64,000 bases of DNA from an uncultured Clostridiaceae bacterium (GCA_946998225.1 CAMPYH010000001.1:162428-226427); one strand, 5' to 3'; positions 37,438-39,202 are shown, numbered from the stretch's first letter. The notes: generated from the letters alone by a model not told the origin. A program made the numbers and translations.

Positions 37438-37480
37438 ATATAAAATGAAAAATAAAATAAAAAAAGCTTTATAACACAAA

Positions 37481-37503
37481 GATTATAAGGCTTAAATATT
37501 GGT
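37481..37503. repeat. Direct repeat copy 1 (23 bp, GATTATAAGGCTTAAATATTGGT), identical to the tRNA-Arg 3' flank plus the first 4 nt of the tRNA 3' end
   Basis: Exact 23/23 match to 39107-39129. Confidence 0.85.
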
Positions 37504-37636
37504 CACTAATTCAAAAATGGTAAAAAAATAAAAGCTATAAAAAAATATTAAATTTCTTAATTATTAAAAGAAGAAGTAAGGATAAATTAGATATGGATTT
37601 AAATTTATTAGTAGATTATTAAACTAACGATTAAAA

Positions 37637-37727
37637 TTTGACATAATGAAGTTAAGACAAATATAATATAAATATCTCATGGAATTTCACTATTCCTGAA
37701 AGAGTAGTTTTGTGCTACTCTTTTTAT
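37637..37727 (+). ncRNA. Candidate small RNA (~55 nt): consensus promoter followed closely by an intrinsic terminator, with no ORF longer than 6 codons
   Basis: TTGACA(37637-42) - 18 nt - TATAAT(37661-66). Transcript region 37673-37727 has an internal hairpin GGAAT-ttcact-ATTCC and a terminator GAGTAG-ttttgtg-CTACTC plus TTTTTATT. Confidence 0.35.
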
Positions 37728-38033
37728 TATGGAAAGTAAAAGTCAAGAAAAGAAAAAATTATATTTTTAGAAAATCAGATATTGAATTATCAAAGCATTT
37801 TTATTAAATTATAATCAAAGGATTGAAAAAACAATTTAAGTGATAATGAAATAATTGATTTTATAAAAAACACTAAAATTAACTATGTTGAATTAAAGAA
37901 TATGAAAAATGTAAGGTACGGGGGAATATAAAGGTTTATATATAAGAGTTATATCAAATAAAGCGAATACAGAACAAATATCTATTAGTTTTAACAAGAC
38001 TGATGTATCAATAACAAAGGAGAAAAATAATTT

Positions 38034-38300
38034 ATGGGAAAAAAAGAATACTTAGACATGATAATGTTATATATTTTAAAAAAAATTAAAACTATTGATG
38101 AAATAGTTGATTTTTATGATGAAATAGTTCTTCAAGCCCCTTATAATGAAAAAGATAATGTATTCAGAAAATTTCTGCTTGAATTAGACGATTTATCAGA
38201 AGAGTTCGAATATACGGAAGATATAAATGAATTAAAAAAATATGATGTAAAACTTATTAAGATAATGAAAAAATATAATTACTTAAAAGACACTAAATAG
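38034..38300 (+). CDS. Small acidic protein (88 aa), member of a local family of (K)LLKKY-motif proteins
   Basis: ORF with an RBS AAAGGAGAAAAATAATTT-ATG; C-terminal ELKKYDVKLIKIMKKYNYLKD. Confidence 0.5.
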   Translation: MGKKEYLDMIMLYILKKIKTIDEIVDFYDEIVLQAPYNEKDNVFRKFLLELDDLSEEFEYTEDINELKKYDVKLIKIMKKYNYLKDTK

Positions 38301-38602
38301 TATCTTTTTATTTCAATAATTGATTTGATTAATTAAAAAAAATTAGGAGCTTTTTTAGATCGAAGAATGAAAAAAGCGAACGAAAACAGAGAAGAAAAAA
38401 CAAGAATGCAATTTGAATTGAGTCAGATTGCAGAGAATGAAAAGAAAGACAAGTGAACAGTAAAAGTTGGAATAGCAAAAAAGATAGCTAAAAAAAAGAA
38501 AAGCATGTTTATAGGCGTGAGCCGGTATATCAAACAATATGGTGACAACAAATATAAAGATGGGGAATCTAATACAAGTTAGTCCACGTACTAAGAGGTA
38601 AA

Positions 38603-38800
38603 ATGAAATTAACAGAAAAGCAAATTAAGTTGTTAAAAAAATATGAAGTTAATTATAAAGTTGAAGATATAGATAATCTATTGATTAACATTGATTTAAT
38701 AATGACTAAATATTTAGATGAAAATGATGAGCCTACTGAAGATTTTCTCATTTTAGAAAAATTATATGATGAAATATATGATTCGGAAGATGCTAAATAG
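38603..38800 (+). CDS. Small acidic protein (65 aa), paralog-like to 38034
   Basis: RBS AAGAGG upstream; N-terminal KQIKLLKKYEVNYKVEDI resembles the C-terminus of the 38034 product; acidic DE-rich C-terminus. Confidence 0.45.
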   Translation: MKLTEKQIKLLKKYEVNYKVEDIDNLLINIDLIMTKYLDENDEPTEDFLILEKLYDEIYDSEDAK

Positions 38801-39027
38801 TGTCTTTTTTTATGGCCGAAACATGAAAAATATCTAATATATTAAATGGAGAAAAGATATAATAATATAAGGAAAATATGAATATAGAAAATGAAATAAA
38901 AGAGATAAAAAAAGAAATTGATTCTTTAAAAGAAGAGATAACTTTATGAAAGCGGGAAAAGAAGAAACACCTAAAAGAAAATTTTTTGGTACAGATAATT
39001 AATTAAATTTGAAAATCATATAACTCT

Positions 39028-39056
39028 AAAGAGAGTTTAGTCTCTCTTTTTTATTT
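39028..39056 (+). terminator. Hairpin terminator immediately preceding repeat copy DR2a
   Basis: AAAGAGAG-tttagt-CTCTCTTT followed by TTTTATTT. Confidence 0.55.
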
Positions 39057-39057
39057 C

Positions 39058-39083
39058 TAACTACTGACCAACCACTGACAAAA
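39058..39083. repeat. 26-bp direct repeat DR2 copy a (TAACTACTGACCAACCACTGACAAAA)
   Basis: 24/26 identical to 40152-40177; both follow a hairpin terminator. Confidence 0.8.
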
Positions 39084-39106
39084 AAATTAAACCTTACAAC
39101 CGCAAG

Positions 39107-39129
39107 GATTATAAGGCTTAAATATTGGT
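39107..39129. repeat. Direct repeat copy 2 (23 bp), which overlaps the 3' end of tRNA-Arg by 4 nt
   Basis: Exact match to 37481-37503. Confidence 0.85.
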
Positions 39130-39202
39130 GCACCAAGAGGGATTCGAACCCCCGACCTTTCGGTTCGTAGCCGAACGCTCTATCCAACTAAGCTATTGGT
39201 GC
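39126..39202 (-). tRNA. tRNA-Arg (anticodon ACG)
   Basis: Reverse complement GCACCAA TA GCTTAGTTGGATAGAGC G TTCGG CTACGAA CCGAA AGGTC GGGGGTTCGAATCCCTC TTGGTGC A CCA. Confidence 0.9.

Follow-up and report, generated by a model that had tools for sequence, protein, structure and literature searches.

A strain-variable 1.6-kb island without a recombinase at the 3′ end of a tRNA-Arg gene in an uncultured Clostridiaceae bacterium

The DNA analysed here, referred to as the window, is a stretch of 64,000 nt (64 kb) from an uncultured Clostridiaceae bacterium (GCA_946998225.1 CAMPYH010000001.1:162428-226427), whose gene content (RNase Y, IreB-RuvX-DUF1292, MurD and a surface protein with Listeria-Bacteroides repeats) points to a Bacillota-like organism. 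Adjoining a tRNA-Arg(ACG) gene in this window is a strain-variable insertion, island 1, made up of one copy of a 23-bp direct repeat and the DNA between the two copies (Table 1). A preliminary description of the locus had proposed a perfect repeat bounding an insertion at the tRNA 3′ end, with no recombinase in the enclosed 1.6 kb, and the present analysis bears out all three points. The repeat, GATTATAAGGCTTAAATATTGGT, is exact at 37481-37503 and 39107-39129, finds no third match in the window with up to 3 mismatches allowed, and has a chance expectation of 0 in 100 dinucleotide-preserving shuffles. Insertion at the tRNA 3′ end is further supported in that relatives do not all carry the 1.6 kb and, in the window, the 23-mer does not belong to a dispersed repeat family. 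The island had also been described as AT-rich, which it barely is, with a guanine-plus-cytosine (GC) content of 23.0 % against 24.8 % for the genome.

The proximal copy of the repeat comprises the discriminator base and CCA of the tRNA (4 nt), as placed by ARAGORN and Rfam, followed by 19 nt of 3′ flank. These 19 nt form the 5′ arm of the intrinsic terminator of tRNA-Arg, here termed P-type, and the distal copy forms the 5′ arm of a weaker, D-type hairpin. Since only four tRNA nucleotides lie within the repeat, the crossover region is essentially the terminator. The attL/attR geometry, previously called classic, stands as regards the direct repeat and its position at a tRNA 3′ end; the tRNA portion of the repeat is short for that label, and the site-specific nature of the insertion is something that we infer. 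The P-type terminator is not present in the empty-site strains described below. There the D-type hairpin stands directly 3′ of tRNA-Arg; it is the ancestral terminator of the gene, displaced by 1.6 kb in the window.

Loci and contigs compared with the window carry L-numbers; the conspecific ones were retrieved by exact-protein look-ups and are metagenomic, with flanks 98-99 % identical to the window. Island 1 occurs in three samples, the source of the window, ERZ27283125 (L001/L125) and ERR7528826 (L002), the latter two holding the island with both repeat copies. It is missing from four: ERZ27269904 (L054/L123/L134), SRR29183911 (L124/L120), ERR14871598 (L127) and ERZ27283192 (L135). The empty tRNA-Arg site that had been suggested as a check in close strains is present in L054, L124 and L127. 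In the first of these samples only 820 nt separate the surface-protein gene from RNase Y, and the order is the left flank of the window, a single 23-mer and tRNA-Arg, base for base; the alignment of L054 with the window breaks off at 37503 and picks up again in the tRNA. L124 and L127, which are independent assemblies, likewise have a single core fused to tRNA-Arg. Filled and empty alleles are therefore resolved to the base. L135 also lacks island 1, and there the 3′ flank of tRNA-Arg has been swapped, leaving 0 core copies.

Outside the species, a sister species (L043, RNase Y 89 % identical) and a more distant outgroup (L052, 71 %) keep the order MurD, surface protein, tRNA, RNase Y without island 1, with spacers of 744 and 985 nt, respectively. 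The tRNA-Arg gene of L052 has its own homologous terminator with a similar stem. Together, the conspecific empty sites and the island-free outgroups show that the ancestral state was without island 1, which is an insertion of 1626 bp. When a genome collection was scanned with RNase Y, the relatives found were no more than 40-51 % identical and belonged mostly to the candidate phyla radiation, and no useful locus emerged. One further contig, L055, was discarded as a chimeric assembly; at positions 1-900 it fuses an E. coli-like tufB/thrU-tyrU-glyT-thrT segment to sequence of this species by way of the shared tRNA-Thr(TGT). Although this shows that chimeric contigs do occur in the material, repeat collapse or expansion during assembly has next to no chance of explaining the two alleles, because three independent samples or assemblies show the filled state and no fewer than three show the empty one, the flanks are continuous, and the assembler k-mers (contigs named k141) lie far above 23 nt.

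Divergence among the carriers sets the island apart from its surroundings. Island 1 is 99.75 % identical between carriers, compared with about 98.2 % for the flanking genes (murD and the surface-protein gene, 97.5-98.5 %), and 4 differences are seen where about 29 would be expected (Poisson P about 1e-8). The island is thus younger than the strains that carry it, and the sequences indicate that it spread horizontally in recent time. Deletion of an ancestral island between the 23-bp repeats would produce exactly the empty site observed. Such a history is nevertheless very improbable, given that both outgroups (L043 and L052) are without the island, that the island is about 7-fold less diverged among carriers than its flanks, and that the origin of the repeats would itself still require an insertion.

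Similarity between the two repeat sites extends beyond the core, reaching 50 nt at 80 %, and this extra similarity is one-sided: 17 of 27 positions match on the terminator side (P about 0.002) as against 5 of 27 on the other. The asymmetry fits arm homology between attP and attB and not a target-site duplication. It counts against the idea that island 1 is a transposon or a miniature inverted-repeat transposable element (MITE) whose 23-bp repeat is a duplicated target, which would equally account for a direct repeat at both ends and a single copy at the empty site. A target-site duplication of 23 bp would be unusually long. An insertion sequence, MITE or transposon would be expected to show a transposase or terminal inverted repeats, a short target-site duplication and several copies; as neither a transposase (Pfam, tblastn) nor terminal inverted repeats at the boundaries are found, and as the island is single-copy in the window, we regard this origin as scarcely credible.

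A weightier alternative holds that no recombinase core exists and that the repeat just marks where two orthologous terminators are conserved, brought together by homology-facilitated illegitimate recombination or flank replacement. Donor DNA with a native flank of P-type terminator and downstream genes would have been anchored by homology in tRNA-Arg, its far end joining by the microhomology TGGT after the resident core. Several observations lend themselves to this account. Homology between the D- and P-type terminators spans 50 nt, a P-type flank stands at tRNA-Arg in a sister-species strain (L046), and islands 1 and 2, the latter beyond the tRNA (Table 1), form a low-divergence block that could be a single import. 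Moreover, L135 documents a swap without direct repeats at this very locus: its tRNA-Arg 3′ flank (L135 1528-1712) is a 185-nt module, 84 % identical over 149 nt to the tRNA-Leu(TAA) 3′ flank (window 1905-2053), joined at the shared GCACCA and ending in a tandem 11-mer (TTGGGGTATAA twice), with the same layout of terminator plus tandem 11-mer as the end of island 1. However, the repeat consists of 23 perfect nucleotides beside 27 at 63 %, and in L046 the corresponding 23 nt carry 4 differences; an illegitimate join would have to hit the last base of the tRNA exactly; and in both species the P-type module goes with extra strain-variable DNA and is not a fixed native flank (L043 versus L046). Flank replacement thus appears unlikely as the source of island 1, yet it deserves to be taken seriously.

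Our preferred explanation, which is probably correct and in which we place moderate confidence, is that island 1 is a small non-autonomous element, akin to a cis-mobilizable element (CIME), integrated by attB × attP recombination at the 3′ end of tRNA-Arg. The attB site would be the 23 bp at the extreme 3′ end of the gene (ACCA plus the 5′ arm of the terminator), and attP a matching sequence on the incoming DNA. Recombination would strand the original terminator together with one core copy at the distal, attL-like end; beside the tRNA, at the attR-like end, would come the look-alike terminator carried by the island, with a tandem 11-mer motif behind it. Because a replacement terminator is supplied, tRNA-Arg stays intact and still terminated. 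The excised form is predicted to have the circular junction ...CCGCAAG-GATTATAAGGCTTAAATATTGGT-CACTAATTC..., and the circular attP is predicted as ...TTAAACCTTACAACCGCAAG-GATTATAAGGCTTAAATATTGGT-CACTAATTCAAAAATGG.... The tandem 11-mer may serve as an arm-type protein-binding site, and the island may still be mobile today.

Support for this explanation comes from the exact and unique repeat, the base-exact empty sites, the island-free outgroups and the 99.75 % identity of the island among carriers. Further support comes from the P-type terminator and tandem 11-mer at tRNA-Arg of L046, the recurrence of the motif at tRNA-Thr, a homologue of an island gene beside tRNA-Leu(CAA), and an integrase-encoding 21-kb element at tRNA-Arg, all described below.

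Other results weigh against it. Neither the open reading frame (ORF) list nor Pfam reveals a recombinase in island 1, and tblastn with a local integrase and a serine recombinase detects no recombinase remnants there. No integrase, resolvase or transposase was found in the 64-kb window (Pfam on 30 large ORFs, plus the annotation of syntenic contigs), and a cognate integrase appeared neither in the window nor among the proteins called on syntenic contigs. Scans of viral contigs for the motif, the P-type terminator and the core gave zero matches and no attP-like sequence, and BLAST of island 1 against phage and plasmid records matched the tRNA gene alone. The island has been seen at one site only, and no circular junction was observed. 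For most catalogued islands in tRNA genes (tDNA), the crossover lies within the anticodon loop or the T-stem (PMC4383910, Table 1), while the repeat here includes 4 tRNA nt. Finally, the flank of L135 was replaced non-reciprocally and without direct repeats, so that general or illegitimate recombination also operates at the locus. The lack of a recombinase in the island means that the enzyme would have to act in trans, or else come from an integrase-bearing element that accretes at the same site and serves the island in cis, as happens with CIMEs. No cognate integrase having been found, island 1 may be either a decayed element or a satellite mobilized in trans, the two options offered in the preliminary description.

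Comparison with known systems places island 1 near, but not squarely within, several of them. Like a CIME (PMC5704250, section 2.3), it has direct repeats at a tRNA 3′ end and no integrase or transfer genes, it retains both attL and attR (two exact 23-bp cores, as against one at the empty site), and it occupies an accretion-prone hot-spot that also takes integrase-bearing elements. It differs in its very small size (1.6 kb) and in that the integrative and conjugative element (ICE) at the same tRNA uses another core, in the anticodon loop. Decay from an ICE or an integrative and mobilizable element is not evident either: residual homology to an autonomous relative was not found, island 1 resembling neither the ends of the ICE in L120/L124 nor any phage or plasmid record or viral contig searched. 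The tDNA islands catalogued by Islander (PMC4383910) share with it an intact tRNA at one end, a same-orientation displaced junction copy at the other and an unoccupied attB in relatives (L054, L124 and L127). In contrast to those islands, no tyrosine integrase gene lies inside, the displaced fragment consists of 4 nt of tRNA (ACCA) and 19 nt of terminator, and the core starts at the discriminator and runs downstream, away from the anticodon loop and T-stem (PMC4383910, Table 1). A third, 'asymmetric 3′ end' sublocation has been recognized for tDNA integration (10.1101/2020.11.02.365908, Discussion) and is the closest fit for island 1. Integrative mobile elements exploiting Xer (IMEX), which are flanked by dif-like XerC/D sites at the chromosome terminus, are also without their own integrase; the site of island 1 is a tRNA terminator.

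Within the island, the sRNA-like unit (sRNA, small RNA) noted earlier has a promoter (37638-37667) that is a 12/12 match to the sigma-70 consensus, and of the two hairpins downstream the second is a predicted terminator (fold -17.5 kcal/mol, z = -3.6). Rfam has no match to it. The two small ORFs, ORF88 and ORF65, are acidic, as had been stated, but they are not detectably paralogous, the comparison giving a BLASTP E of about 0.1 and an hhalign probability of 3 %. Pfam, PHROG and PADLOC return no family match for either. ORF88 is, by sequence criteria, a real gene under purifying selection, with omega (the ratio of nonsynonymous to synonymous substitution rates) of 0.25 against an 82 %-identical copy in L047. 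Its relatives among billions of proteins amount to three close ones (two clustering at >50 % identity) and one credible distant one; two long-protein matches in a deep HMMER search proved to be repeat artefacts. AlphaFold2 models four helices at low confidence (predicted local distance difference test, pLDDT, 62). Upstream of ORF88, an open stretch at 37823-37931 (…SDNEIIDFIKNTKINYVELK…) has 75 % nucleotide identity over 40 nt to the 'IDEIVDFY' region of ORF88 and may be a degraded duplicate of part of it. Further short open stretches occur inside island 1. In-frame TGA codons in the island had raised the suspicion of genetic code 4 (Mollicutes), which is ruled out: in-frame TGA occurs in 0 long ORFs, the code is therefore the standard one (code 11), and the TGA codons of the island are stops.

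The tandem 11-mer that follows the P-type terminator recurs 3′ of tRNA-Thr at 40152-40177 (24 of 26 nt identical), and these two sites are the only places in the 64 kb with the exact 8-mer TGGTCAGT. It is also found after tRNA-Arg in L046, with other cargo. A metagenome scan for the tandem 11-mer gave 63 matches, all of them unrelated iteron-like arrays and none with a tRNA context. Iteron arrays containing TGGTCAGT occur in unrelated contigs, some of about 37 % GC and others high-GC and marine (L064, L067, L069 and others), and the 8-mer may represent a widespread type of DNA-binding site.

Table 1. Features at and around the tRNA-Arg(ACG) locus, in window coordinates
Feature	Position	Strand	Remarks
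Terminator of the 1204-aa surface-protein gene	37406..37430	plus	chromosomal; also in empty-site L054, L124, L127
D-type hairpin and T-run	37457..37493	minus	fold -7.2 kcal/mol, z = -2.3
Distal 23-bp copy (attL-like core)	37481..37503	minus	exact match; L054 alignment stops at 37503
Island 1	37504..39129		1626-bp strain-variable insertion; one repeat copy plus intervening DNA
sRNA-like unit	37638..37728	plus	consensus sigma-70 promoter TTGACA-18-TATAAT (12/12), then ~55-nt putative transcript
ORF88	38034..38300	plus	small acidic orphan; isoelectric point (pI) 4.9; good ribosome-binding site
ORF65	38603..38800	plus	small acidic ORF; pI 4.3; Shine-Dalgarno sequence
Cargo-closing terminator	39028..39049	plus	ends plus-strand transcription directed at the tRNA; terminator scan
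Tandem 11-mer end motif (TGTCAGTGGT/TGGTCAGTAGT)	39058..39083	minus	26 nt
P-type terminator	39087..39121	minus	island-borne, now serving tRNA-Arg; -15.7 kcal/mol, z = -5.3
Proximal 23-bp copy (attR-like core)	39107..39129	minus	overlaps ACCA of tRNA-Arg
tRNA-Arg(ACG)	39126..39202	minus	target gene; ARAGORN and Rfam (70.6 bits); intact in filled and empty states
Promoter-like site	39241-39213		
Island 2	39251..40215		~0.97-kb strain-variable insert, 3′ side of tRNA-Thr(TGT)

Beyond island 1, the locus is a busy integration hot-spot. Island 2, which lies on the other side of tRNA-Arg, holds ORF69 (39576-39785), a conserved 136-nt sRNA-like segment and the second copy of the tandem 11-mer motif. 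It is missing in L054 and L043, partly deleted in L127 and present without island 1 in SRR29183911 (L120/L124), so the two inserts vary independently. It has no clean direct repeats; about 968 nt replace 57 nt of the short allele, the tRNA-Thr terminator included. A near-copy of the tRNA-Thr junction inside island 2 (TATTATGGAGTTACT at 39895-39910, compared with TATTATGGAGCCACT at 40214-40229) suggests that the insert may have grown by tandem accretion. The 136-nt segment (39952-40086, minus strand) has a promoter-like site at 40102-40074 and a terminator at 39981-39968 and has the appearance of a roughly 105-nt sRNA, without a match in Rfam. It is 87 % conserved at L050 9706-9841, at the end of a serine-recombinase element in an organism whose RNase Y is only 74 % identical.

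Another insert at the locus, Tn916-like and about 21 kb long, occupies the anticodon loop of tRNA-Arg(ACG) and is found in SRR29183911 and ERZ27255993 (L124 17290-20780 plus L120 1-5627, which are one contig, SRR29183911_74; also L133 1-1760). It encodes ArdA, an erm-like methylase, an Xis-like protein and a tyrosine integrase. With island 1 it shares the target gene, the species and the flanking direct repeats, and near both of its own ends lies a repeated motif (GGGAATTTCTTGGGAAAG). It is autonomous, however, has a 13-bp repeat in the anticodon loop (GTTCGTAGCCGAA), splits the native tRNA without restoring it and brings its own complete, divergent tRNA-Arg(ACG) adjoining the integrase. As its core differs from the 23-mer, it is not an obvious helper for island 1.

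Comparable insertions are seen at neighbouring and related tRNA genes. In L135/L133 (1930-7673) a 5.8-kb insert starts exactly after the CCA of tRNA-Thr and carries a defence-type set of genes, namely an OLD/GajA/AriA-like nuclease, an NT5C/nucleoside-hydrolase fusion, an HD protein and a 141-aa resolvase; on the side next to the tRNA, its flank is similar to the one that the L050 serine-recombinase element has at tRNA-Thr. In L046 the P-type terminator and the motif follow tRNA-Arg as in island 1, with different cargo. An attempt to extend the L046 island through its 115-aa ORF led to a 919-bp contig as the sole carrier. The ORF88 homologue (82 % identical) is located 3′ of a different minus-strand tRNA, tRNA-Leu(CAA), in a related organism (L047-L049). 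At L047 5900-8850 there is an array of small two-ORF units, each with a terminal tRNA-like RNA matching Rfam SpF41 (7618-7719 at 50.9 bits; 8688-8808 at 30.9 bits), and 35 nt of the tRNA-like 3′ part are directly repeated (6243-6277 and 8745-8779). It is the last unit, adjoining tRNA-Leu(CAA), that contains the ORF88 homologue.

On a bolder reading, island 1 would belong with the L046 island, the tRNA-Thr insert and the 'Leu-type' module of L135 to a single class of tiny cassettes, not described before and lacking recombinases of their own. A dedicated recombinase acting in trans would direct such cassettes to the position right behind the CCA of tRNA genes, and each would bring a replacement terminator and a tandem 11-bp putative protein-binding motif. 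If true, tRNA 3′ ends would have a cassette system comparable to integrons; we consider this proposal improbable. On its own, island 1 is a routine accessory islet, best read as a decayed or non-autonomous tRNA-associated islet of ordinary type within an unusually well-sampled hot-spot. Its value lies in the base-exact filled and empty alleles inside one uncultured low-GC species, which show tRNA 3′ flanks as exchange points and illustrate that an insertion can target a tRNA terminator while supplying a replacement. Should a trans-acting recombinase be identified, the module of terminator plus tandem 11-mer would define a family of non-autonomous elements that would escape island finders based on integrases.

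Elsewhere in the window, a type IV secretion system coupling protein (TraG/VirD4-like, 738 aa; 22236-24452) and a TraX-like protein (15034-15822) are isolated among housekeeping genes, and the coupling-protein gene is kept in every conspecific contig spanning that region (L123-L126). Between an SbcC-like gene and tRNA-Cys/Gly (27705-28750), the content of small ORFs varies among the conspecific L123, L124 and L125, and the 3′ side of tRNA-Cys/tRNA-Gly may be a further variable tRNA-flank spot. The 1204-aa surface protein beside island 1 has a papain-like domain and six Listeria-Bacteroides repeats, and a 12-nt tandem repeat array (37031-37126) lies in its N/R-rich, low-complexity C-terminal region.

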